A stretch of 44,347 nt of DNA, filler included, from Bdellovibrionota bacterium (GTDB lineage: Bacteria > Bdellovibrionota > Bdellovibrionia > Bdellovibrionales > JAEYZS01): assembly GCA_963169515.1 (NCBI GenBank). It is 3 parts of 3 records of this genome, joined end to end, with 100 filler letters (N's around TTAATTAATTAA, not from the genome) between each part and the next. Parts side by side here need not be neighbours in the genome. Positions count along the whole stretch, not along the records: positions 1 to 20,887 come from CAUJEF010000168.1; 2 more parts are not named here. One strand, written 5' to 3'. Under the pieces are notes generated by a model. It did no database searches. It worked only from the letters and a program-made list of their open reading frames with translations, and had not been told where the DNA came from. The translations under genes and the position numbers were made by a program. The stretch's first letter is position 1. Each line of letters opens with the position of its first letter. Below are positions 10,236 through 38,357 of this stretch, one piece after another.

Positions 10236-10568
10236 CTAGACCTCACGATTTAATTTTGTCCCTTTCTGATTCATTTTTGGAGGTTCGGCTTTGTAAGCCC
10301 TTCTGCCATTACTCAGCTTATGGTGATTTGTGTAATCTTTCTTCTTCTGGCGCTCCCGTTTTTTCTGCAAAAGATCAATGACATAGTGGGAAGGTTCTGT
10401 TTGGAAAGAATGGTGGTCTCCATTTTTCACGGCTTCACCCTCGACACCAATGACCGGTGAGACACCTTTTGATTTTTTGAATTCTACTCGCTCGAAGTTA
10501 TTAACAGGTTGAAAGCTATCTGGTGTTAGCCCTATGACCTTCATTAGATCGCCCCCGGCGATTAGCAT
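10236..10568 (-). CDS. Small basic hypothetical protein
   Basis: ORF downstream of a near-consensus sigma28 promoter; true start may be the internal Met at 10544. Confidence 0.55.
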   Translation of the reverse strand: MLIAGGDLMKVIGLTPDSFQPVNNFERVEFKKSKGVSPVIGVEGEAVKNGDHHSFQTEPSHYVIDLLQKKRERQKKKDYTNHHKLSNGRRAYKAEPPKMNQKGTKLNREV

Positions 10569-10606
10569 TGTTAAGTTCTAAGACCCTTTTTAAAGGGTCA
10601 TTGCAC

Positions 10607-10633
10607 TTATCGGCATTATAATGCAATACGTTA
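10607..10633 (-). promoter_or_regulatory. Sigma28-type promoter (leftward)
   Basis: Minus strand TAAC-N15-GCCGATAA. Confidence 0.8.
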
Positions 10634-10669
10634 AGTATTTGTATTAATTTGATATTACTTTGAAAAGAC

Positions 10670-10696
10670 TAAAGTATTAACGCTATGCGCCGAAAA
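10670..10696 (+). promoter_or_regulatory. Sigma28-type promoter of flagellin-1
   Basis: TAAA-N15-GCCGAAAA. Confidence 0.85.
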
Positions 10697-10793
10697 GTTC
10701 AATGACTGCTAAATGAACCATGTCTGTGAGCCTCATACATGTCTATTTTGACCTCAAGTGGGATTGAGGCCTTGAAGGAACGTAGGAGGATCT

Positions 10794-11630
10794 ATGGCTC
10801 TCAGGATTAATACCAACGTGGCGGCACTGTCCGCTATGAGACACTTATCAAAACAAGAGGACCAGGTGCAACACGCCTTAGGCGCGTTGGCTTCGGGGTC
10901 TCGAATTGTTCGTCCGGGCGATGATGCTGCGGGATTGGCAATTAGTGAGAATTTGCGGGGTCAAATCGCTGGCTTAAAGCAAGGGGGCCGAAACGCTGAA
11001 AATGCGATTTCATTGGTCCAAGTTGCTGAAGGCGGCCTCAACGAACAAAATAACATTTTAATTAGATTAAGAGAACTTGGTGTTCAAGCGGCGAGCGATA
11101 CTGTATCTGATGTCGAGCGGGAATTTTTAAATGAGGAGTTTGCGCAGCTTACTCAAGAGTTTGACCGTATCGCACGTTCAACGACATTCGGAAATAAAAA
11201 ACTTCTCGAGGGGAGTGGCGGGGATTTCGTATTCCATGTTGGCCCTAATGCGGGAGAAGATAATCAAATTTCCTATACACTCGATGCGGATGCCACAGCG
11301 TCTACAATGGGCGTTGATGGAATGGATATAGCAGACAAAGATGGGGCAAATGATGCATTGGAATCCATTGATTCTGCGCTAGAAAAGCTAGCTGGTATTC
11401 GAGCAAATTTTGGTGCGATCCAAAGTCGATTATCGACAGCTGCAAGTAATACTGCAATTCAGGTGGAAAATGTATCGGCGGCGAAATCTCGCTTGTCTGA
11501 TGCAGATGTTGCAGAAGAAGCTGCGAAGTTTGCGCAAGGGCAAGTGTTGCAAGATGCAGGTGTGGCTGTTCTTGCGCAAAGCTCAGTATTGCCAGCGCGA
11601 GCAAGTAAATTAATCAGTTCAGTATTCTAA
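10794..11630 (+). CDS. fliC: Flagellin (copy 1 in window)
   Basis: MALRINTN...SGSRI...DDAAGLAISE and RANFGAIQSRL...SRLSDAD; short flagellin with almost no variable domain. Confidence 0.97.
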   Translation: MALRINTNVAALSAMRHLSKQEDQVQHALGALASGSRIVRPGDDAAGLAISENLRGQIAGLKQGGRNAENAISLVQVAEGGLNEQNNILIRLRELGVQAASDTVSDVEREFLNEEFAQLTQEFDRIARSTTFGNKKLLEGSGGDFVFHVGPNAGEDNQISYTLDADATASTMGVDGMDIADKDGANDALESIDSALEKLAGIRANFGAIQSRLSTAASNTAIQVENVSAAKSRLSDADVAEEAAKFAQGQVLQDAGVAVLAQSSVLPARASKLISSVF

Positions 11631-11643
11631 CCGGGGCGGGCGT

Positions 11644-11739
11644 AAAAGGTACGCCGTTCCCTTTCAGGAGACTATGCATTATTTTCCTGAAATACAGATC
11701 ACAATGCGCCGTTTCCTGAAAGGGAACGGCGTACCTTTT
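11644..11739. repeat. 26-bp perfect inverted repeat (terminator / REP-like element)
   Basis: AAAAGGTACGCCGTTCCCTTTCAGGA (11644-11669) and TCCTGAAAGGGAACGGCGTACCTTTT (11714-11739), 44-nt spacer. Confidence 0.85.
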
Positions 11740-11839
11740 TAAGACTGACCTAGACCTAGGTCGAAAAAACTTTCAAAGTAAAAAACAAGTATTTTTAAAC
11801 ACAAGACGCAACGCGTTTTATAATTACTCGACTAAGGTA

Positions 11840-11866
11840 TTAAGTTTTCTAGACCAAGGACGAGAA
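11840..11866 (+). promoter_or_regulatory. Probable sigma28-type promoter of flagellin-2
   Basis: TTAA-N15-GACGAGAA (degenerate match). Confidence 0.5.
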
Positions 11867-12047
11867 GTTAAGCGAACACGTTGGAGCAAAGACGATGGTT
11901 CATTTAGCAGTCACTGAATGTACCGTTGTTGTTCCTAAAAGAACCTCCAGCACAGCAAAACGTTAACAATTGCCACAGTTGTGGCTAAGGCACAAGTGCG
12001 CTTAGAGGAGCGAACTCTTGTTGTCAAAAAGATCTAGGAGGTCTTTT

Positions 12048-12875
12048 ATGGGCTTAAGAATTAATACAAATATCGCCTCGATAAATGCTCAACGTCAGTT
12101 GGGTAAGCAGTCAGCACGAACTAACCATGCTCTTGCTGCAATGTCTTCCGGTAGCCGCATCGTAACAGCAGCTGATGATGCTGCTGGATTGTCTATCTCG
12201 GAAAATATTAAAGGACAAACACGCGGTTTAAAAATGGCAAAATACAATGCCGAAAACGCAGTGTCGTTAATCCAAGTGTCTGAAGGTGGATTAAACGAAA
12301 TCAGTAACATCTTAATTCGTTTGCGCGAATTGGGTGTGCAAGCAGCTTCTGATACCGTGTCAGATGTAGAGCGAGGCTTCCTGAACCTAGAAGCTACGCA
12401 ACTCGTTGAAGAGGCAGATCGAATTGCGAAAACCACACGATTCGGTAACAAAACGCTGCTCGATGGAGCTGGCGAAGAATTAGAGTTCCATGTTGGACCG
12501 TTCGGTGGTGCAGAAAATATTGTTTCTTACAAAATAACTGCCGATGCAACTGGTTCAACTCTAGGTTACGATGGAATCCAAGTTGATTCCAAAGACTCAG
12601 CCCGGGACACTCTTCAAAAAGTTGACGATGCCATCAACCAAATCGGAGCTCTTCGAGCGGATTTCGGCGCAGTACAAAGTCGTATGAATTCGACATCAAG
12701 CAACCTTGATATTCAATACGAAAACTTGGCTGCAGCCAATTCCCGACTTCGTGATGCTGATATTGCTTACGAATCTGCGGAGCTTGCTTCATCGCAAGTT
12801 CTCAACAATGCAGCGGTAGGTGTATTAGCGCAAGCGAATACAGTCGGAAATCAAGCGTTGCGTTTGCTTAACTAA
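12048..12875 (+). CDS. fliC: Flagellin (copy 2)
   Basis: AGGAGG RBS; MGLRINTNIASINAQR...; flagellin N- and C-terminal motifs. Confidence 0.97.
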   Translation: MGLRINTNIASINAQRQLGKQSARTNHALAAMSSGSRIVTAADDAAGLSISENIKGQTRGLKMAKYNAENAVSLIQVSEGGLNEISNILIRLRELGVQAASDTVSDVERGFLNLEATQLVEEADRIAKTTRFGNKTLLDGAGEELEFHVGPFGGAENIVSYKITADATGSTLGYDGIQVDSKDSARDTLQKVDDAINQIGALRADFGAVQSRMNSTSSNLDIQYENLAAANSRLRDADIAYESAELASSQVLNNAAVGVLAQANTVGNQALRLLN

Positions 12876-12886
12876 TAACAAATTAG

Positions 12887-12921
12887 CTTTTCGAAGGGTA
12901 TAAACCCTTCGAAAAATTTTT
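12887..12921 (+). terminator. Hairpin after flagellin-2
   Basis: TTTTCGAAGGG-TATAAA-CCCTTCGAAAA followed by A/T run. Confidence 0.65.
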
Positions 12922-12929
12922 ACAAATTT

Positions 12930-13020
12930 GAGAACGACGGCTCACAGACACTTAAAGTGAAGACATGGCTGACGTTCTTAAGCCCGCCCTGGGTAACCCC
13001 ACATTACCCAGGGTTTTTTT
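12930..13020 (+). ncRNA. Candidate structured sRNA or extended 3' UTR ending in an intrinsic terminator
   Basis: Stem AGAACGACGGC/GCTGACGTTCT, then CCCTGGGTAA-N7-TTACCCAGGG plus T-run; contains complements of the flagellin-1 UTRs. Confidence 0.45.
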
Positions 13021-13119
13021 CATGTCGATAAGTTCGACGAAACAGTCATTATAAATTCACCTAAATGTTCTGAAAGTGTGCACAGGAATTGCTTTAATCG
13101 CTCGCATTAAAGGGAATTT

Positions 13120-15687
13120 ATGACGACAATCAACCTGGAACGGAAAGCGCGCCAATTTTTGTTCCTTAAGACATTTACTGTACCAATTATTTTGCTGACG
13201 ATTTTACTGATATCGCTGCTAGTTCAGACGGTAAGCGCGGAGCAAATTAAGCCGGCACGATTTGATAGGCCACCGCACGTGGTGTTTTTGATTCACGGCC
13301 TTTTAGGTGATCCGACGACGTTTGGTGATATGGAGGCTCTCTTACGGGAACGATATCAGTCGGAAAATGTTCGTATAAAGACGTTGTTTTATCCGTCAAT
13401 CCCAGGGCAAGGTGATACAGAAAAGATCAATGCATTTACCCCTCTGGATTTTGCAAAGATTATAAATTCACAAATGATTAGTTACTTGATCGAAGAGGGT
13501 GTCAAAGATAAACAACAAAATCGTCCATACCCAATTGACATAAATACGCCCATTTCCTTCATCGTCCACAGTCAGGGTGGTGCGGTCGTATTGCACTATC
13601 TGAACTCGTGTTACAGGAAGAATCTACAACAGCCACGCTGTTTTTACGACGAAGGCGTTCAGCTGATGGCAGACGCAGGCTGGTTTAAGTCTGGTGGTCC
13701 ACAGTGGCTCTCCCAAGCGTGGCCTAATTTACAAAAAGAGTTAAATTCAAATTTGGTTCTTAAAAATGTTGATCCACCATCAAATATTCATACCTTTGTT
13801 AGCTTGGCTTCTCCATTCTGGGGATCTGCCGCTGCAAATAAATTAGTTGCCATCAATAACAACAATAAACTTCACAAATTGACAATTGGTGATTTTGTAC
13901 CAGGAAATGGCAACGACATAATTGAAAAACTTAACCTTCCGCTCGGCCAAATCAAAAACCTGTCCATGGGCAGCGAGTCTGTTGCGTGGGCACGTAGTCT
14001 TATGTTGGATCGAAATGCTGTGGATACTGAAGAGCATTGGACATCCAATACTCGATGGAGGAGCCGTTATCCTAAAACCTTAAAAGTATACAATGTAGCG
14101 GGGGTTATCACTGGCTTGCATAAGAGCATAAAAAATGCTGTTCAACGCCAGATTTTAAAGTTTGAAGAAATGGAAACAGACGTTGTTGTCAGTGCGCCAG
14201 AAGCCCGTCTTGATTTCATATACTACATCGAAAACTCAGACCCAAAGAAGAGTCCATTGAGCGGACGTACAAACTTGGGCAAAGGATATTATCCGGTTGC
14301 AAGTGCACATTTGCCTGGTTTAGAAATGGCAGCAATTGATATTCAGGGAATTGCCACTGTAACACGAGCGAATCAAAGCAATCATTTGGGGTTTACAGTG
14401 ACAAAGAGAGCATTGGATTTTGAGTTTGGTTTGGCACAAAGTGCTGATCTAACGCAAGAGGAAAAGGATAAGTTCTTACTGCCAAAGCTTCAAAATTTTA
14501 CAGTCGATTTGAAATTATTAACTCCACCTGGATATTTTCGACAATTTGGCATTATGGAAAGCAATGTTAGAATTACCCCAGAAAAAAATGTGTTTGAAAG
14601 CATAAAAGTAGGTGGAACATTAGTGTTGGATACAAATGGTCAAAACTTTGATGGTGTTAAAGCCAAGAGCAATTATTATCAAACCTATTACCATGTCGGT
14701 CGCTTTGATGAAAAGCATGCATACCTTCCGAGAAAAGAAAGTTTAGAAAGTGCGATTCAAAGAGAGGGTTTGGTAAGGCTTGATTATAAATTCGATCTTT
14801 TGGGTTTTGAGCTTAAAAGTCCAGATAAAATATTTCGCATAGATGTATTTCCGACATTAAGTTCGTACGGTGAATTTTACATTCAACCGTATCAACCAAT
14901 AAAACCAGCGAGACTCCAGGATGAGGACGGCAATGTATATTTGGCGCGTGTCGCAGGCGATGCAAAAAACGATGTTATTTTATATATGGATGTAAATAAT
15001 AATTTGCACCGCGATGTTTTTCCAAAGGGAAAGGTTGCGACAAATTTGTTGCCAGCCTGCAGAGTTGCATTGCTGGGAAAAAAATCTCCCGGCTTCCATC
15101 GTCAGAAGAAACTAAATTATTTTCAATGGATAAGGCTTGCGAATAACACAGGATTTTTGCAGCCCACATTTTCGGCAGATGACCAGTTTCGAGATACTCT
15201 GCTGGAGAGTTTTGCGGAAGAAAACGGTGAAAAAATAGACTATGCAATGCCATTGGAAATCATTGGCCGTTATAAAACGACAATTGTAGATAGATATTTG
15301 CGTGATTATATACAGCAAGAGAGAAAGAAATTTGAGAAAATGTCTGATTTTGAACAAAATATTTATCTTGCAGAACATCCGGACATTGATTTGAATTCTG
15401 ATGGATCACGAATATTCGATAGATATTTAGTAACGGCTCCAATCATTCGACGATTCGATTCCTCGAAAAGTATGAGCCAAATAAAAATGAATGACCTGGG
15501 TCCTAATAATCAAGGTTTGCGTTGGGTGAACGTAGTGGATGTTGACGTTTTGAAATATGTGCACGTAATACACCCTGACACGGGTGGATTGATCAGCGCG
15601 CCAATCGATAATCATTGTTTAGGTGATAGTTCTCCGTTTCAATACGCACCAAAATCAAAGTTTCGAAAGCTTTATTACGCAGAGTAA
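13120..15687 (+). CDS. Secreted alpha/beta-hydrolase (lipase-like) with large unassigned C-terminal region
   Basis: Signal peptide; FLIHGLLG, IVHSQGG (nucleophile elbow), SLASPFWGS, DVVV. Confidence 0.75.
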   Translation: MTTINLERKARQFLFLKTFTVPIILLTILLISLLVQTVSAEQIKPARFDRPPHVVFLIHGLLGDPTTFGDMEALLRERYQSENVRIKTLFYPSIPGQGDTEKINAFTPLDFAKIINSQMISYLIEEGVKDKQQNRPYPIDINTPISFIVHSQGGAVVLHYLNSCYRKNLQQPRCFYDEGVQLMADAGWFKSGGPQWLSQAWPNLQKELNSNLVLKNVDPPSNIHTFVSLASPFWGSAAANKLVAINNNNKLHKLTIGDFVPGNGNDIIEKLNLPLGQIKNLSMGSESVAWARSLMLDRNAVDTEEHWTSNTRWRSRYPKTLKVYNVAGVITGLHKSIKNAVQRQILKFEEMETDVVVSAPEARLDFIYYIENSDPKKSPLSGRTNLGKGYYPVASAHLPGLEMAAIDIQGIATVTRANQSNHLGFTVTKRALDFEFGLAQSADLTQEEKDKFLLPKLQNFTVDLKLLTPPGYFRQFGIMESNVRITPEKNVFESIKVGGTLVLDTNGQNFDGVKAKSNYYQTYYHVGRFDEKHAYLPRKESLESAIQREGLVRLDYKFDLLGFELKSPDKIFRIDVFPTLSSYGEFYIQPYQPIKPARLQDEDGNVYLARVAGDAKNDVILYMDVNNNLHRDVFPKGKVATNLLPACRVALLGKKSPGFHRQKKLNYFQWIRLANNTGFLQPTFSADDQFRDTLLESFAEENGEKIDYAMPLEIIGRYKTTIVDRYLRDYIQQERKKFEKMSDFEQNIYLAEHPDIDLNSDGSRIFDRYLVTAPIIRRFDSSKSMSQIKMNDLGPNNQGLRWVNVVDVDVLKYVHVIHPDTGGLISAPIDNHCLGDSSPFQYAPKSKFRKLYYAE

Positions 15688-15856
15688 GTGTTTCCTCGCC
15701 CCCCGTCCCTTGTCCTGGCTATCTTAGTCGAGTATGACCTTCTTCTCGGCTAGGAATTTCTGCTCCTATTTAAGAAATCTTTAGACCAACGTACCTGGAA
15801 CTCAAAACCTTGGTCCAGTTTTCCTATGACATTGGTCCAGTTCTGCTCGACGCGAC

Positions 15857-15883
15857 TTCAGTCGCCTAGACACTGGCCGAAAG
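15857..15883 (+). promoter_or_regulatory. Sigma28-type promoter of flagellin-3
   Basis: TTCA-N15-GCCGAAAG. Confidence 0.6.
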
Positions 15884-16098
15884 GTTAATCGTGAATGCGA
15901 TCGAAATTGAGAGAGTGATCAGCTTCCTTCGAGTGACTGCGAGGGGTAGTAAGTAAACGAAGCTCTTGAGATTGAAAATCAAATTTGCAAAACCAATGTG
16001 TTCAACCCCGGCAATGATTGCCAGGCTTGCCAAGGCTTATATGGGTAAGATCCTTGGCAGGCTCGAGAATTGATTCTCAAAATTTATAGGAGGCCATC

Positions 16099-16932
16099 AT
16101 GGGTCTTAGAATTTCCACAAACCTTCCGTCCATTAATGCTCAAAGGCATTTGGCGGGAAACCAAATCAATATCAGTAAAGCGTCTGCTCAACTTGCTTCA
16201 GGCAGTCGTATTACAAAGGCTGCAGACGATGCAGCTGGATTATCCATCAGCGAAGGATTCAAATCTCAAATCCGCAGCTATAAAGCAGCGTCACGAAACG
16301 CAGAAGATGCAGTGAGTTTGTTGCAAGTAGCAGAGGGTGGTTTATCTGAAACTGCAAACATCATGACTCGTATGAGAGAGTTAGCAATCCAAGCTGCCTC
16401 TGATACAGTGAGCGATGTTGAGCGTGGCTACATTAACTACGAGGTAAAACAACTTGTGGCTGAAGCGGACCGCATTGCTCAAAGTACGCGTTTTGGCCAT
16501 TCAAATCTATTAGATGGTACAGCTCAGGTATTCGATTTCCAAGTAGACACAGGTGACGATGATTTCAAAGACAGAATTTCTTTTGACGGTGGTCAATTGA
16601 ATGCAACTGTTTCTAACCTTGGTGTTGATGGTGTTGATTTCACATCTAAAGGTGGTGCGCGTGATGCACTGGTAAAATTAGATAGTGCTACAAATCAAAT
16701 CAATGGTTTTAGGGCAACAATCGGTGCAGTCCAAAATAGATTGCAATCGACCCAAGCAAACCTTGCCACGGCCCATGAAAGTTTGTCGGCAGCAAATTCA
16801 CGGTTACGTGATGCGGACATTGCGGACTCTTCTGCGGAGCTAACCAAAAGCGGTATTTTATTGAATGCTTCAACAATGGTTCTTGCGCAAGCAAATCAAC
16901 ATCCAGCTTTAGCACTTAAGCTAGTTGGATAA
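16099..16932 (+). CDS. fliC: Flagellin (copy 3)
   Basis: AGGAGG RBS; MGLRISTN...SGSRITKAADDAAGL...RATIGAVQNRL. Confidence 0.97.
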   Translation: MGLRISTNLPSINAQRHLAGNQINISKASAQLASGSRITKAADDAAGLSISEGFKSQIRSYKAASRNAEDAVSLLQVAEGGLSETANIMTRMRELAIQAASDTVSDVERGYINYEVKQLVAEADRIAQSTRFGHSNLLDGTAQVFDFQVDTGDDDFKDRISFDGGQLNATVSNLGVDGVDFTSKGGARDALVKLDSATNQINGFRATIGAVQNRLQSTQANLATAHESLSAANSRLRDADIADSSAELTKSGILLNASTMVLAQANQHPALALKLVG

Positions 16933-16946
16933 ACTTAGAAATCTGT

Positions 16947-17011
16947 AAAAAAGGGGAGCGGCCTCCGTTCCCTTGGTACCTTACCCATCCGGAGGGGGGT
17001 GACCTCTCCGG
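16947..17011. terminator. Two GC-rich hairpins between convergent genes
   Basis: AGGGGAGCGG-CCT-CCGTTCCCTT preceded by an A-run; CCGGAGGGG...CCTCTCCGG. Confidence 0.55.
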
Positions 17012-17040
17012 TGGTATTTCGCTGGCCATACGGTGTTATG

Positions 17041-17931
17041 TTATGGCTGAAAGAATTCGTGGGAATAACGGCCGGCTTGGTGCTCTTGTGTTATGTATTC
17101 GTTTATTGATAGCCTTGCATTTGAAAGCGTTCTTAAGAAAAAAGTCTTATAGGTTGGTTCAATATCTCGTGCTTTTTTGACCTGTTTAATTGCAGCAGCG
17201 ATTTCATGGTCCGAAATTCCCTGTAAAAAAGTCCACTCTGCCGTCATGGCCCCCATTTCGCCGATATACTTTAGCTCATTTGAGGCTCGATCAGAAATTT
17301 TTACGTCATGATTATCGAAGGCCGTGGAAAGTCGAATATGCTGAATGGCGTGTTCCATTTCGTGGGCAAACAAATACGCATGGAGAAGTGTGCCTTTATA
17401 TTGGTTTGGCATTTCAAAATAAATAATTTGATCTTTGGGTAAATACGCTGCTGTTAGATCATCGGCATCGTCTTCTTTTCCTAGGATTGGGCTATTGACC
17501 CAGTTTACGGACATGAATATTTTCTCTAAGGCTTTTCTCTGGATATCACTAAGCATTGTAATTCGAGCTTTCAAATACATTTCAAATGCAACATCAAGAT
17601 TTCGCTTGGATTGAGTGTATCCGCCCATTCCAGTTCGGACTTGTCCAATGGTCGTCTTATAATTTAAAAGTATTTTTTCAAGCGTAGGATATTTTGTTAC
17701 AAAGGTTTTCGAGTCTTTTTTGCGTGATTTGGATTCAAAGCTTTTAACCAGCTTTACTTGCTCAGAAACAGTTACAATTGAAATATTTGAAAAAACACTT
17801 TGGCAGACCAATGCATGAGCATGGCTTGAAAACAAAAATAAAATCCCCCAGACTAACCAGCGCAACCCTATACCCCAATTTCCTAAAGATCCAGGAACAG
17901 TCATAGCAGAGGATACGTCTGAAATAATCAT
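17041..17931 (-). CDS. Secreted hypothetical protein with HExxH zinc-peptidase motif
   Basis: Signal-like segment ending AHA; FAHEMEHAIQ with downstream E (GEMGAM). Start uncertain. Confidence 0.55.
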   Translation of the reverse strand: MIISDVSSAMTVPGSLGNWGIGLRWLVWGILFLFSSHAHALVCQSVFSNISIVTVSEQVKLVKSFESKSRKKDSKTFVTKYPTLEKILLNYKTTIGQVRTGMGGYTQSKRNLDVAFEMYLKARITMLSDIQRKALEKIFMSVNWVNSPILGKEDDADDLTAAYLPKDQIIYFEMPNQYKGTLLHAYLFAHEMEHAIQHIRLSTAFDNHDVKISDRASNELKYIGEMGAMTAEWTFLQGISDHEIAAAIKQVKKARDIEPTYKTFFLRTLSNARLSINEYITQEHQAGRYSHEFFQP

Positions 17932-18053: not shown

Positions 18054-18080
18054 TAAACATTTCAAGTGAAATCCCGATTG
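18054..18080 (+). promoter_or_regulatory. Probable sigma28-type promoter of flaG-fliD-fliS
   Basis: TAAA-N15-CCCGATTG. Confidence 0.55.
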
Positions 18081-18089
18081 CTATTACGA

Positions 18090-18464
18090 ATGAATATCAG
18101 ATCAGTGGGGCCGAATTTGACCCCGTTAGAGATTAAAAAACCAGAAGTGTCTAAAGAGACAAAATTAGACAGTTCCCAAGAGCGTGATGCCCAAGTATTT
18201 TATCAAAATGGAAAAGAGCAAGAGAGGCGAAAGCTGACCGAAGAAGAGCTTCAAGAAGCGATGAAGCATTTGCAAGGGTTGCCATTTGTTAAGGATAACA
18301 ATTGGGCCATTCGTCTTGAACGAGTCGGCGAAATAGTCACAGTTTTTGTTGAAGATAACACTGGAAAAATAATTCGAAGGATACCAGAACAAGACCTTTG
18401 GGGGCTTATTTCTCAGCAAAATAATGACCAAAACAAGGGTAACCTTTTTAACAAGGCTATTTAG
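18090..18464 (+). CDS. flaG: Flagellar protein FlaG
   Basis: VFVEDNTGKIIRRIPEQ motif; located before fliD. Confidence 0.8.
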   Translation: MNIRSVGPNLTPLEIKKPEVSKETKLDSSQERDAQVFYQNGKEQERRKLTEEELQEAMKHLQGLPFVKDNNWAIRLERVGEIVTVFVEDNTGKIIRRIPEQDLWGLISQQNNDQNKGNLFNKAI

Positions 18465-18532: not shown

Positions 18533-19930
18533 ATGGCGATATCATTTGGCGGCATCAATACGGGCCTACCTCCGAATCTGGTCGATCAGTTGATCGATGC
18601 GGAACGCTTGCCAATTAAAACTCTCGAAGCAAAAAAGACTAAAATTGAATCGAAGCTAAAACATGTAAACGATCTCGAAGAGAAAATTCGTGGAATCGGT
18701 GGGTCGCTAAAGGAACTTGCGGGTACTAAGGGATTCACGGATATGAAAGTGTTTTCAGGGGATCCCAACATTGTTTCTGGAGCGGCAGACCCTAATATTG
18801 TTCGAAATGGCAGTTGGAATATCGAAGTAATGCAACTTGCGAACAAGGCGTCTGCGATCACCAATGGGTTTCCGGATAAAGACACGGCAGAAATAGGAGT
18901 GGGGTACTTTTCATTTGAAACACCAAGCGGAACAAAAGAAGTTTATATTGATGGTGAGAATAATACTCTTGAAAAGGCTGCAGCTAAAATAAACAATTCA
19001 GGCCTGGGTTTGCAGGCTACAGTAATCAAAGATAGCACGGAAAAGGATGCCCCCTGGCGCCTGATGATCTCTGGCGTATCTGTGGGAGAAGGCAACGAGG
19101 TAAAATATCCGACGTTATATTTTCTGGATGGGGATCAAGATATTTATTTCGATAAACAGCGTGATGCTCAAAATGGGAAAATAAAACTCGACGGATTTGA
19201 AATTGAAGTCGACAAAAATAAGCTCGACGATTTGATTCCTGGGGTGTCGCTTGATATTAAGCAAGCTGCGCCGGGAAAAGAAATTAATATTAGTGTTGGT
19301 GAGGATACGCAAATCGTTGGTGGCAAGATCAAGTCATTCGTTGAAGCAATGAACAACGTCTTAAGCTACATCCAATCGCAGAGTCGCCTAACGGAAAAGT
19401 CAGACACAAGCGGGAATTTGATGGGCGATGGAATTATACGTCGTTTGCAAAATGACATCCGTAACTTGATTCAAAGTCCGCAGTATTCTGTAAAAGGAAA
19501 CATCAAGTCGCTAAATCAACTTGGCATTCAGTTCAACAGAGCCGGTACGCTAGATTTTAATGAGGAAAACTTTAACAAGATTCTCACTGGTCAGGTCGAC
19601 GACGTGCGTGCGTTTTTTGTGGGCGATGGTTATGGCACAGGATTTATCGATGCCATAAAGGGATTTGTAGACCGCACGGTGTCCAATGCATTTAGCCCTA
19701 TTGCAAACAAAAGGAGTGGTTTGCAACAAGAGATTCGTACAGCCGATCAAAAAATAGAAAACTTAGAGAGAAATCTTCAAATCAAAGAAAAAAATTTAAG
19801 AAGGAAGTTTGCAAACCTTGAAGAAACAATGTCCAAACTGAAAACTCAGGGCGATCAGATGGCTGCGCGGTTAGGCGGAGGGGGAGCGGGGGCATTAAAT
19901 CTGGGTGGCGCAAGCATGACATCAACATAA
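18533..19930 (+). CDS. fliD: Flagellar filament cap FliD
   Basis: ISFGGINTGL...LIDAER, IEVMQLA, LRRKFANLE. Confidence 0.95.
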   Translation: MAISFGGINTGLPPNLVDQLIDAERLPIKTLEAKKTKIESKLKHVNDLEEKIRGIGGSLKELAGTKGFTDMKVFSGDPNIVSGAADPNIVRNGSWNIEVMQLANKASAITNGFPDKDTAEIGVGYFSFETPSGTKEVYIDGENNTLEKAAAKINNSGLGLQATVIKDSTEKDAPWRLMISGVSVGEGNEVKYPTLYFLDGDQDIYFDKQRDAQNGKIKLDGFEIEVDKNKLDDLIPGVSLDIKQAAPGKEINISVGEDTQIVGGKIKSFVEAMNNVLSYIQSQSRLTEKSDTSGNLMGDGIIRRLQNDIRNLIQSPQYSVKGNIKSLNQLGIQFNRAGTLDFNEENFNKILTGQVDDVRAFFVGDGYGTGFIDAIKGFVDRTVSNAFSPIANKRSGLQQEIRTADQKIENLERNLQIKEKNLRRKFANLEETMSKLKTQGDQMAARLGGGGAGALNLGGASMTST

Positions 19931-19946: not shown

Positions 19947-20345
19947 TTGAGCAAACATGCGTATCAAAAATACAAAGAGTCCCAGGTGCTCAGCGCGAGC
20001 AAAGAGACTCTGCTTTTGATGTTGTATGAGGCGGCTATCAAATTTACAAAAAAGGCGATCATTGCAATCGAAAAAAAGGATATTGCCGGTCGAGGTGAAA
20101 ATGTTGGAAAGGCTTATGACATCATAATGGAGCTCAATAATACCCTAGATCACAAAGTTGGTGGAGAAATTGCAGCAAATTTAGAGCGTCTGTATAATTT
20201 TATTACTGAACAACTTGTAAAAGCGAACATCAAAGGTGATCCAGAACCTTTACATTCGAGCGTTAAAATTTTAGAGAACTTATATGAAGGATGGAAGGGC
20301 GCAGTTGAGAAACTTAAAACGGAATCGAGGGGGAAAAGTGGATAA
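19947..20345 (+). CDS. fliS: Flagellin export chaperone FliS
   Basis: LLMLYEAAI, ELNNTLD, GGEIAANLERLY, LYEGW; TTG start after GAGGA. Confidence 0.95.
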   Translation: MSKHAYQKYKESQVLSASKETLLLMLYEAAIKFTKKAIIAIEKKDIAGRGENVGKAYDIIMELNNTLDHKVGGEIAANLERLYNFITEQLVKANIKGDPEPLHSSVKILENLYEGWKGAVEKLKTESRGKSG

Positions 20346-20887: not shown

Positions 20888-20987
20888 NNNNNNNNNNNNN
20901 NNNNNNNNNNNNNNNNNNNNNNNNNNNNNNNTTAATTAATTAANNNNNNNNNNNNNNNNNNNNNNNNNNNNNNNNNNNNNNNNNNNN
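20888..20987. other. Artificial contig linker
   Basis: N-run flanking TTAATTAATTAA (stops in all six frames), 100 bp total. Confidence 0.98.
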
Positions 20988-29337: not shown

Positions 29338-29688
29338 GGGGGTGTTCTGGTTTCGACGTGGGTTGAGAAGCTTAAGGAGCATGCCGGGGAGTATGGCCTC
29401 GATAAAAAAATGCAAACTTGTAATTGGCAACGATTACGCACTAGCAGCTTAATTTATTAAGCAGCCGATCCTAAGTTCTGTGATGGCGGGAATTTAAAGG
29501 TCGACATTTAGTCATCTCGGTTGTGTAGGATAACTGATCCAGCAACACAGCTTAAATTTACTGGATGAGTGCTGTTAAGATAGTTTGTTTGTGGACAGTC
29601 TTAACTTCTAACAAACACAAACTAAGCGTGTAGCCCGTCTTAAGTGGACATCTTGCGGACGGGGGTTCGATTCCCCCCACCTCCACCA
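29338..29688 (+). ncRNA. ssrA: tmRNA; tag reading frame GNDYALAA* at 29426-29452
   Basis: 5' GGGGGTG..GGTTTCGAC; 3' GGGGGTTCGATTCCCCC-CACCTCC-ACCA with G3:U acceptor pair; tag ends YALAA. Confidence 0.97.
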
Positions 29689-38257: not shown

Positions 38258-38357
38258 NNNNNNNNNNNNNNNNNNNNNNNNNNNNNNNNNNNNNNNNNNN
38301 NTTAATTAATTAANNNNNNNNNNNNNNNNNNNNNNNNNNNNNNNNNNNNNNNNNNNN
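38258..38357. other. Artificial contig linker
   Basis: N-run flanking TTAATTAATTAA. Confidence 0.98.

Follow-up and report, generated by a model that had tools for sequence, protein, structure and literature searches.

Covarying complementarity among the untranslated regions of three clustered flagellin genes in the Bdellovibrionales

The flagellin cluster and its promoters

The window, the whole stretch of DNA analysed here, comprises 44,347 nucleotides (nt; filler included) of a Bdellovibrionota bacterium (assembly GCA_963169515.1) and contains a cluster of three flagellin genes, fla1, fla2 and fla3, whose untranslated regions (UTRs) are complementary to one another at several places. The genes are all on the + strand of the contig at window positions 1–20887, which comes from a 2.38-Mb, 96%-complete metagenome-assembled genome (MAG; here G000). 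They are fla1 (10794–11630, 278 amino acids [aa]), fla2 (12048–12875, 275 aa from the ATG at 12048) and fla3 (16099–16932, 277 aa). fla1 and fla2 are tandem paralogues with 57% identity between their proteins, and fla2 is the best conserved of the three. The genome has six flagellin genes, the other three being located on contigs C162, C140 and C87.

An initial annotation of the window described five complementary contacts between the flagellin noncoding regions, here (a) to (e), and proposed that these UTRs pair with each other. All five are present at or near the places given there. The proposal holds for (a), (b), (c) and (d), which are supported by conservation across the Bdellovibrionales and by compensatory change at orthologous loci for each of the four; it does not hold for (e).

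Upstream regions were aligned for orthologues from 40 genomes of the order Bdellovibrionales and from 13 named MAG contigs; the relatives matched with the fla2 protein are MAGs of the Bdellovibrionales, the Pseudobdellovibrionaceae and Bdellovibrio. Each of the three paralogues has its own conserved sigma-28-type promoter in these alignments. That of fla1 (10670–10696, + strand) reads TAAAGT ... GCCGAAAA and has the orthologue form TAAAGTTATAACGC-N-CCGATAA; that of fla2 (11840–11866, + strand) reads TTAAGTTT ... GACGAGAA and aligns with the orthologue form TAAAGTTTnCTnGACCnnnGnCGAnAA; and that of fla3 (15853–15884, + strand) has its −10 box GCCGAAAG at 15877–15884 and the orthologue form CGACTAAAG-N-GACCTCGCCGAAAG. 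The published start site of Bd0606, a fla3 orthologue, is given as 8 nt past the −10 box (Karunker 2013, PMC3627812), and the same 8-nt rule predicts starts in the window at about 10704, 11874 and 15892. Because of the conserved boxes and this rule, contacts (a) and (c) start at the first nucleotides of the predicted transcripts, within 1–4 nt, in agreement with the initial annotation, which had put them there from the sigma-28 boxes.

Complementary contacts between the untranslated regions

Contact (a) joins the predicted 5′ end of the fla1 mRNA (10698–10721, + strand, with +1 at ~10703–10704) to the 5′ arm and loop (11895–11918) of a predicted hairpin in the fla2 leader, hairpin 1 (11893–11928, + strand). 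The two segments are complementary at 23 of 24 positions, 19 of which form a perfect run (10703–10721 with 11895–11913). None of 300 dinucleotide-preserving shuffles is as good in score or run, the longest shuffled run being 13, and the 19-mer is found at these two sites only in the 2.38-Mb genome with up to three mismatches allowed. Pairing was scored by an ungapped local score; RNAduplex on whole intergenic regions gave meaningless full-length duplexes. Contact (a) is beyond chance in the window, and the window alone establishes (a) only and (d) marginally.

The same arrangement is found in relatives, where fla1 is complementary, over its first ~20 nt, to a stretch that begins 30–50 nt into the fla2 leader. 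fla1 is immediately upstream of fla2 in 18/26 and 10/14 fetched loci, and (a) occupies corresponding positions in 21 of 22 genomes for which both leaders were predicted. Cognate pairs have a mean score of 15.70 and non-cognate pairs one of 9.04; the observed mean is reached by 0/10000 label permutations (22 genomes), and the cognate partner is at the top of its row in 16/22. Helix length and sequence differ between genomes, from 11 to 24 nt, and complementarity is kept, with fla1 and fla2 sides such as TGACGGCTGATATG and CATATCAGCCGTCA (G018), TGACTATAAACGACC and GGTCGTTTATAGTCA (G020), and TGACTGTTAGACGAGATC and GATCTCGTCTAACAGTCA (L053). In the predicted folds, 18/21 genomes have their fla2 site on the 5′ arm plus loop of a local hairpin.

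A table of the (a) helices anchored on a conserved AC of the fla1 side includes 18 of 20 genomes; L056 and L060 were left out by a bulge that puts the anchor outside the ungapped duplex, and G032 (no contact) and G030 (a near-duplicate of G038) had been set aside beforehand. Offsets −2 to +13 are paired in 15–18 of the 18 genomes, and 18 of 20 positions have at least two Watson–Crick pair types that differ on both sides, which bears out the contact as first described. Change on both sides extends to the loop, whose positions are unpaired in cis, and this rules out simple copying of the hairpin 3′ arm. The sole genome without (a), G032, lacks both the fla1 motif and the hairpin and has a fla2 leader of merely 67 nt. 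Six genomes (G001–G004, G006 and G011) have no adjacent fla1 and a fla2 leader with a second, GC-stemmed hairpin only. A fla1-type 5′ motif was not found on the other flagellin genes of seven genomes that lack an adjacent fla1; of the 14 upstream regions compared, 13 are those of paralogues of another type.

Contact (d) is adjacent to (a) on the fla1 leader (10721–10732, + strand), where TGTCTGTGAGCC is the local form of a CUGUGGG motif conserved in fla1 leaders. Its partner is in a post-fla2 element (12920–13021, + strand) that contains a hairpin with GGCUCACAGACA (12939–12950), an invariant UUAAGCCCGCC (12978–12988) and an intrinsic terminator (12986–13014 plus a T-run); there are two terminator-like hairpins after fla2. 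The 12-nt match is perfect and is equalled in 1/300 shuffles, which is marginal after ten region pairs. In relatives the element has the same organization, a hairpin presenting (G)CCCACAGAC followed by the invariant UUAAGCCCNCC and an intrinsic terminator; an alignment of 26 sequences (including the window and G049) contains 10 invariant columns, and 7 of the 9 pairs of the terminator helix have changes on both sides.

The seed of this hairpin and the CUGUGGG of the fla1 leaders match with lineage-specific extensions of 11–14 nt. The mean score, with the element defined by motif, is 12.50 for cognate and 8.68 for non-cognate pairs (0/10000 permutations), and this carries (d) beyond its standing in the window. 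The element gives no cognate signal with its own fla2 leader (9.00 versus 8.65; 657/10000) or with the fla3 leader (9.40 versus 9.19; 2131/10000), and (d) is therefore specific to fla1. The five same-family genomes without an adjacent fla1 (G001, G002, G003, G004 and G006; loci L027, L029, L030, L031 and L033) have lost the CCCACAG seed and kept the hairpin, UUAAGCCC and the terminator; fla2 hairpin 1 is lost in the same five, and the rest of both fla2 elements is kept. This joint loss fits fla1 as the partner. The fla1 orthologue of G016 has no 5′ motif and retains the (d) motif GTCTGTGGC. In the window and in roughly half of the relatives the (a) and (d) sites are contiguous, so that both ends of the fla2 transcript together would cover the fla1 mRNA over its first ~35 nt. 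A genome-wide search of G000 for a complement of UUAAGCCCNCC gave none.

The same post-fla2 element had also been described as complementary to the fla1 3′ UTR, contact (e) (11628–11645 with 12978–12995, 15/18 matching). This is at chance level, the best region-pair score of 9 being reached by 154/300 shuffles, and a GGGCGGGC-type complement is present in the fla1 3′ region of 4/28 genomes only; (e) was dropped.

The fla2 leader has two contacts with the fla3 leader. Contact (b) is a 7-nt loop–loop complementarity between CAGUCAC in the loop of fla2 hairpin 1 (CAGTCAC at 11908–11914, + strand) and GUGACUG in the loop AGUGACUG of a predicted fla3 leader hairpin (15922–15949, + strand; GTGACTG at 15933–15939), of which both hairpin and loop are conserved in orthologues. 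The fla3 orthologue leaders are 200–250 nt long and most have a hairpin loop aGUGACUGc. Loop variants are matched on both sides, as CAAUCAC/GUGAUUG in G001, G003, G004, G006 and G049, CGUCAC/GUGACG in L054 (10 nt in all) and G016, UAGUCA/UGACUA in G020, and CCGUCA/UGACGG in G018. Such joint changes occur in at least four lineages, with both partners in predicted loops, and it is these matched variants that bear out (b). The fla1 5′ ends of G018 and G020 have the same change as the (b) loops, so three RNAs vary together.

Contact (c) is formed by the first part (11874–11884) of the fla2 5′ motif GAACACGUUGGAG (11874–11886, + strand) and by CCAAUGUGUUC in the fla3 leader (15993–16003, + strand), a local form of the conserved CUCCAACGUGUUC. 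Most orthologues have, ~100 nt before the fla3 ATG, a (CU)CCAACGUGUUCAAC segment that reads as the fla2 5′ end in reverse complement; the site is so placed in 27/30 genomes. The cognate mean of 13.58 is reached by 0/10000 permutations (non-cognate 10.85; n=30), and (c) is upheld by this test. The fla2 5′ end and fla3 site vary in step, being GTAAGTTGGAG and CTCCAACTTAC in G001/G003, ACAAGTTGGAG and CTCCAACTTGT in G006, GAACAAAACGGGG and CCTCGTTTTGTTC in G020, GTACATGTTGGAG and CTCCAACATGTAC in L058, GAATACGTTGGAG and TTCAACGTATTC in G012, and GAACACATTGGAG and CTCCAATGTGTTT in G011. The exact 13-mer GAACACGTTGGAG of the fla2 5′ motif occurs in 106/384 genomes of the order, and ~18 genomes have one forward and one reverse copy of it on a single contig, 1.4 to 22 kb apart.

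The best match between the regions upstream of fla2 and fla3, a 12-mer (11825–11836 with 15723–15734; 3/300 shuffles), is upstream of both predicted promoters and is probably due to chance; a 15-nt match in the same place (11825–11839 with 15720–15734) was taken as chance on the same grounds. In four loci (L048 [7524], L066, L068 and L075) a second fla3-like paralogue follows directly after fla3; it has a 51–64-nt leader without the loop and CUCCAAC sites and is outside the network. A complement of the fla3 5′ end, for which the initial annotation proposed a search of the other flagellin leaders, was not found in those of C162, C140 and C87, and none of six segments (the 5′ ends of the three flagellin transcripts, both hairpins and the 3′ element) matches these three leaders beyond shuffles, the lowest count being 10/200.

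The types of mismatch within the contacts were counted in alignments built blind to mismatch type. There are 28 G·U and 14 A·C mismatches overall (p=0.044), and 10 and 1 respectively in (c) alone. This excess favours pairing between + strand RNAs, and does so modestly for (a) and (d).

Transcripts, related small RNAs and leader folds

All three flagellin genes are represented in metatranscriptome contigs from two runs of one study. Those over fla1 cover 10726–11049, 10876–11121 and 11405–11631, those over fla2 cover 11893–12967 and 11893–12446, and those over fla3 extend from 15923 and 15927 to 16949. The contig at 11893–12967 crosses the fla2 stop codon and the first hairpin into the post-fla2 element. 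RNA contigs start 22–35 nt past the predicted starts and none extends upstream of those starts; there is no RNA-contig cover at 10400–10623 or 13088–15775, none bridges 11632–11892, and a DNA run covers all of these at ~12x. The 855-aa gene between fla2 and fla3 has no RNA-contig cover, and the flagellin genes on either side of it are covered. This pattern is a weak hint of separate transcripts. The fla2 contigs of both runs begin exactly at 11893, the first base of hairpin 1 and ~20 nt past the predicted start, which may reflect processing at this position or the way in which the contigs were assembled.

A long palindromic hairpin with a T-run follows fla1 (11644–11739, + strand; ~96 nt with 37-nt arms) and is terminator-like. 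It is a dispersed repeat with copies of 78–88% identity on C155, C48, C123, C31 and C119, it interrupts assembly of the DNA run, and it is likely the fla1 terminator, outside the pairing network. At gathering scores the sole Rfam match in the window is a tmRNA gene (29338–29688), which is on a different piece of the window from the flagellin contig, the further pieces being joined via N runs at 20888–20987 and 38258–38357. At E values up to 1 over 10560–17100 there are only sub-threshold matches to microRNA precursors, on the repeat hairpin (11643–11740).

The two fla2 elements resemble two published small RNAs (sRNAs) of Bdellovibrio bacteriovorus HD100. APsRNA3 (561,854–561,981; 128 nt) has a FliA promoter and is 191-fold enriched in attack phase, and APsRNA4 (562,984–563,081; 98 nt) is enriched 116-fold (Karunker 2013, PMC3627812). 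Their starts derive from TAP-based 5′-end data, with 5′ UTRs continuous with a gene discarded, and the supplement places the flagellin Bd0604 at 562,130–562,954 and Bd0606 at 564,214–565,047 (PMC3627812). In the passages of that paper that treat them, the two sRNAs are reported without targets and without homologues outside B. bacteriovorus; the words flagellin and fliC have no occurrence in its main text, and these passages draw no link to flagellin genes.

In relative G049 the fla2 and fla3 orthologues are at the coordinates given for Bd0604 and Bd0606. By its published coordinates APsRNA3 corresponds there to the 5′ part of a fla2-type leader: it starts ACGUUGGG at 12 nt past the box homologous to the fla2 sigma-28 promoter, has the hairpin loop CCAAUCAC and ends after CUCCAAC. 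APsRNA4 corresponds to the post-fla2 element, a hairpin with CGCCCACAUAU followed by CUUAAGCCCACC. By eye and motif, the window and APsRNA3 share ACGUUGG(A/G)G, a hairpin with a CA(G/A)UCAC loop, and CUCCA(A/G)C (window 11878–11886, 11893–11928 and 11944–11951). The post-fla2 element of the window, as APsRNA4, is just after a Bd0604-type flagellin gene and contains UUAAGCCCNCC and a terminator. By position and motifs, then, the window elements match as putative homologues of APsRNA3 and APsRNA4.

APsRNA3 is a discrete attack-phase RNA of ~128 nt in HD100; the window RNA contigs run from 11893 into the gene and show neither levels nor ends. APsRNA4 would have its own start by the published start-site data; the window contig 11893–12967 spans the stop codon and the first hairpin, and processing is not visible in contigs. 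Unlike the window, G049 has no fla1 next to fla2. A complement of the APsRNA4 seed is no commoner in G049 than a control pattern, and none is in a flagellin leader. The fla2-type leader of G049 (L106) is 276 nt long, and APsRNA3 ends after CUCCAAC at a U-rich stretch, leaving a remainder of 561,982–562,129; attenuation or processing within this leader is a possibility.

The fla2 leader may also fold upon itself. An internal AAAGAACCUCCAGC (11938–11951, + strand), the local form of the conserved CUCCAAC and a candidate anti-Shine–Dalgarno (anti-SD) segment, pairs with GGAGGUCUUUU at 12036–12046 in the minimum-energy fold, and the ribosome-binding site of the leader alone is predicted to be paired with the internal AAAGAACCUCC. 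In relatives the internal CUCCAAC extends its complementarity to the ribosome-binding region, e.g. to 15 nt in G022 and 14 nt in G001. The element is also complementary to GUUGGAG of the 5′ motif, and the fla2 5′ motif is thus a possible partner of the internal CCUCCAGC. These complementarities and folds suggest a three-part switch of 5′ motif, anti-SD and Shine–Dalgarno (SD) segment that could be set by a trans partner of the 5′ motif. Predicted co-folding yields energy gains of −28.1 kcal/mol for the fla1 and fla2 leaders, −12.7 for the fla2 and fla3 leaders, and −7.5 for the fla1 leader and the post-fla2 element.

Features of CsrA–FliW-type control are present as well. Genes for CsrA (1–132, cut by the contig end) and FliW (284–814) are on the same contig 10 kb upstream of the flagellin cluster, and the fla1 leader has a hairpin CCTCAA-GTGGGA-TTGAGG (10752–10769, + strand) with GGA in its GUGGGA loop, followed by AGGA and the ribosome-binding site AGGAGG (10784–10789). 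All three are candidate CsrA sites, and CsrA control would probably overlay the pairing without replacing it.

The remainder of the locus includes the 855-aa DUF676-type protein between fla2 and fla3 (13120–15687), with an N-terminal serine-esterase-like domain, and genes for FlaG (18066–18464), FliD (18533–19930) and FliS (19947–20345). Upstream of the promoters there are conserved DNA motifs at 11750–11772, 11800–11815 and 15807–15847; many genomes have ACAAGACGC-N4-GCG ~45 nt before the fla2 −35 box, and TAGACC / GGTCCAGTT(T/C)T motifs occur as direct repeats. These are candidate transcription-factor sites.

Probable pairing in trans and its alternatives

The complementarity, its conservation and compensatory change, the placement of the promoters and the expression of all three genes back a reading that we consider probable: the flagellin genes give separate sigma-28 transcripts whose UTRs base-pair in trans, with fla2 as a hub that carries two RNA modules. 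From these data we infer pairing in the cell, with a sign and a purpose in translation, stability or order of synthesis. The 5′ module of fla2 (~11874–11951) would comprise the 5′ motif, the hairpin with the CAGUCA loop and the internal CCUCCAGC, which could cover the ribosome-binding site; the 3′ module (12920–13021) would comprise the seed-presenting hairpin, the invariant UUAAGCCCGCC and the terminator. The first ~20 nt of the fla1 mRNA would bind the loop and 5′ arm of the fla2 hairpin, the loop serving as a toehold with strand invasion next, and the following ~12 nt of the fla1 leader would bind the seed of the 3′ module. The fla2 5′ motif and hairpin loop would bind two fla3 leader sites, CCAAUGUGUUC and the loop GUGACUG. 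An mRNA with its 5′ end covered may be protected or exposed, and occupation of the fla2 5′ motif would shift the balance between pairing of 5′ motif with anti-SD and of anti-SD with SD; the outcome would be a post-transcriptional coupling of the three flagellins in amount and perhaps in order. The modules may work while still part of the mRNA or as released sRNAs, as APsRNA3 and APsRNA4 would in HD100.

The same complementarities could be intramolecular, serving to fold one long fla1–fla2(–fla3) transcript by, for example, pairing of the fla1 leader with the fla2 3′ end. These are neighbouring genes of the same strand, and the (a) and (d) sites are side by side on the fla1 leader (10698–10732) with partners on either side of fla2, as would also suit one folded transcript; this is nonetheless hardly likely, given that each gene has its own conserved promoter with (a) and (c) at +1, that there is one terminator-like hairpin after fla1 and a pair of them after fla2, and that RNA contigs bridge neither 11632–11892 nor 13088–15775. 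The complementarity is also kept at distances of 3 to 11 kb in G040 (fla1–fla2 gap of 2970 nt; fla2 and fla3 sites 11 kb apart), and the fla1 of G016 that retains the (d) motif is 7 kb from fla2. It is quite unlikely, too, that the fla1 5′ segment is a by-product of paralogy, a copy of the fla2 hairpin 3′ arm kept by gene conversion, as the tandem arrangement and relatedness of fla1 and fla2 and the resemblance of the fla1 segment CTGAAATG... to the 3′ arm in many genomes might suggest. The loop part is inverted rather than copied (TGACTG in fla1, CAGTCA in the fla2 loop), both sides change at offsets −2 to +3, the fla1 segment of G000 complements the 5′ arm perfectly where the hairpin's own 3′ arm has mismatches, and (c), (d) and the parallel change of the fla3 loop would be left unexplained.

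A role at the level of DNA, with the repeats acting as an invertase-type phase switch or as inverted operator copies of a DNA-binding regulator that drift together, would account for the 24-nt near-perfect inverted repeat that brackets the promoterless fla1 and the fla2 promoter, a layout reminiscent of Salmonella hix, and for the part of (c) that may be upstream of the mapped start in G049. Several observations make it very unlikely. No recombinase family was found among 20 open reading frame translations scanned (contig 284–20787), where only an HNH endonuclease is nearby, and the contigs of one DNA run (X1, possibly the source of the window), in which rare forms are dropped, have the reference order and no strand-changing joint. 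The helices vary in sequence and in length (11 to 24 nt), as an operator or recombination core of fixed make-up would not; G·U exceeds A·C, the partner sites are in predicted hairpin loops and arms, and by the published coordinates the modules were detected as RNAs in HD100. We consider it highly improbable that the elements are real RNA structures whose main partner is a protein (e.g. CsrA on the GGA of the 5′ motif or on ribosome-binding sites) or a third RNA, with mutual complementarity secondary. CsrA and FliW are encoded on the contig, GGA is present in the fla2 5′ motif, the fla1 hairpin loop and the ribosome-binding sites, and the invariant UUAAGCCCNCC, which has no complementary target in the genome, suggests a protein site; yet a motif and its reverse complement would not be equivalent sites for a single RNA-binding protein, segments that vary and stay complementary are the mark of a helix rather than of a protein site, and CsrA control is compatible with pairing.

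Several points weigh against pairing in trans between separate flagellin transcripts as set out above. Start sites for this organism are predicted from promoter boxes, and the RNA contigs, with both runs from one study, cannot prove ends, levels or single transcripts. Contacts (b) and (c) are of chance length within the window alone by shuffles, and (c) is in a weak form in G000, with 11 nt including one G·U. The generic cognate test of (b) is negative (8.46 versus 8.74, with 8704/10000 permutations reaching it), and the support for (b) consists of motif variants in a few lineages. The mapped start at 561,854 in G049 leaves 6 of the 12 nt (ACGUUG) of the (c) complement transcribed, whereas the 8-nt rule would include 10; if starts elsewhere are like that of APsRNA3, part of (c) is untranscribed. 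Kinship among the genomes means that the permutation counts of the cognate tests overstate independence, and the G·U excess is small for (a) (11 versus 8) and (d) (7 versus 5). In the predicted co-fold, pairing at (a) leaves the fla2 ribosome-binding site unfreed, and the translational-switch part is therefore weakly grounded. Of the RNA chaperones, Hfq (PF17209) alone was searched for, with no match in the 96%-complete genome, and no chaperone was identified.

A more elaborate version of pairing in trans is an RNA-encoded relay in which all flagellin genes would fire from one sigma-28 promoter type and the 5′ end of each flagellin mRNA would remodel the next leader, from fla1 to fla2 to fla3, with the fla2 tail feeding back on fla1. 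Sister mRNAs would in that case time and proportion translation so as to lay ordered segments of the Bdellovibrio filament without a dedicated regulator gene. It has no continuation in the flagellin leaders of C162, C140 and C87, where the fla3 5′ end had no complement, and we regard the relay as doubtful.

UTR-borne modules that pair in trans have precedents. In Escherichia coli, MotR, FliX, UhpU and FlgO are sigma-28-dependent sRNAs processed from, or encoded within, flagellar mRNA UTRs, including the fliC 3′ UTR; they come on together with the late flagellar genes and tune flagellar synthesis; their targets are ribosomal and flagellar operon mRNAs, and they depend on Hfq. The partners described here, in contrast, are paralogous flagellin leaders in a genome in which Hfq was not found. 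OxyS and fhlA form a two-site, kissing antisense pair, and 5′-end pairing stabilizes mRNA in FasX–ska and RoxS–yflS; loop–loop initiation, two contacts per RNA pair and 5′-end pairing are features in common, but OxyS, FasX and RoxS are dedicated sRNAs, whereas the partners here are the leaders and tails of sister mRNAs. CsrA–FliW controls flagellin translation in Bacillus subtilis. It does so too in Campylobacter jejuni, where the flaA mRNA is described as itself regulatory (Dugar 2016, PMC4894983). That control is likewise post-transcriptional and centred on the flagellin leader, and differs in operating by protein titration, not RNA–RNA pairing.

The closest characterised system is FlaX of Vibrio cholerae, described as an RNA from the flaA 3′ UTR that pairs with flaB mRNA and alters filament composition; it is associated with ProQ and blocks 30S binding at several flaB sites (Ghandour 2024, PMC11879080). 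The post-fla2 element is similar, as far as complementarity goes, in matching the mRNA of another flagellin, at the fla1 leader, and in covarying with it. It has no sequence likeness to FlaX as described, and the locus has in addition leader-to-leader contacts at extreme 5′ ends and a loop–loop contact. Literature searches gave no description of leader-to-leader pairing among flagellin mRNAs, of which the initial annotation knew none either, or of targets for APsRNA3 and APsRNA4. Pairing in trans by UTR-borne modules is already known; the architecture here is unusual in that several helices would join sister mRNAs from a single gene family.

In many bacteria a single filament is made up of several flagellins, and how the proportions or order of these are set under a shared promoter class is largely open. 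The locus provides a testable answer, in the form of conserved, predicted intermolecular helices between mRNAs with compensatory evolution across an order, and candidate targets for two abundant attack-phase sRNAs of B. bacteriovorus that have been without a function since 2013. Direct mRNA–mRNA pairing has, to our knowledge, been described in few bacterial cases. A network of several contacts inside a single gene family would broaden this class and would offer a natural model of toehold-type strand invasion at mRNA 5′ ends.

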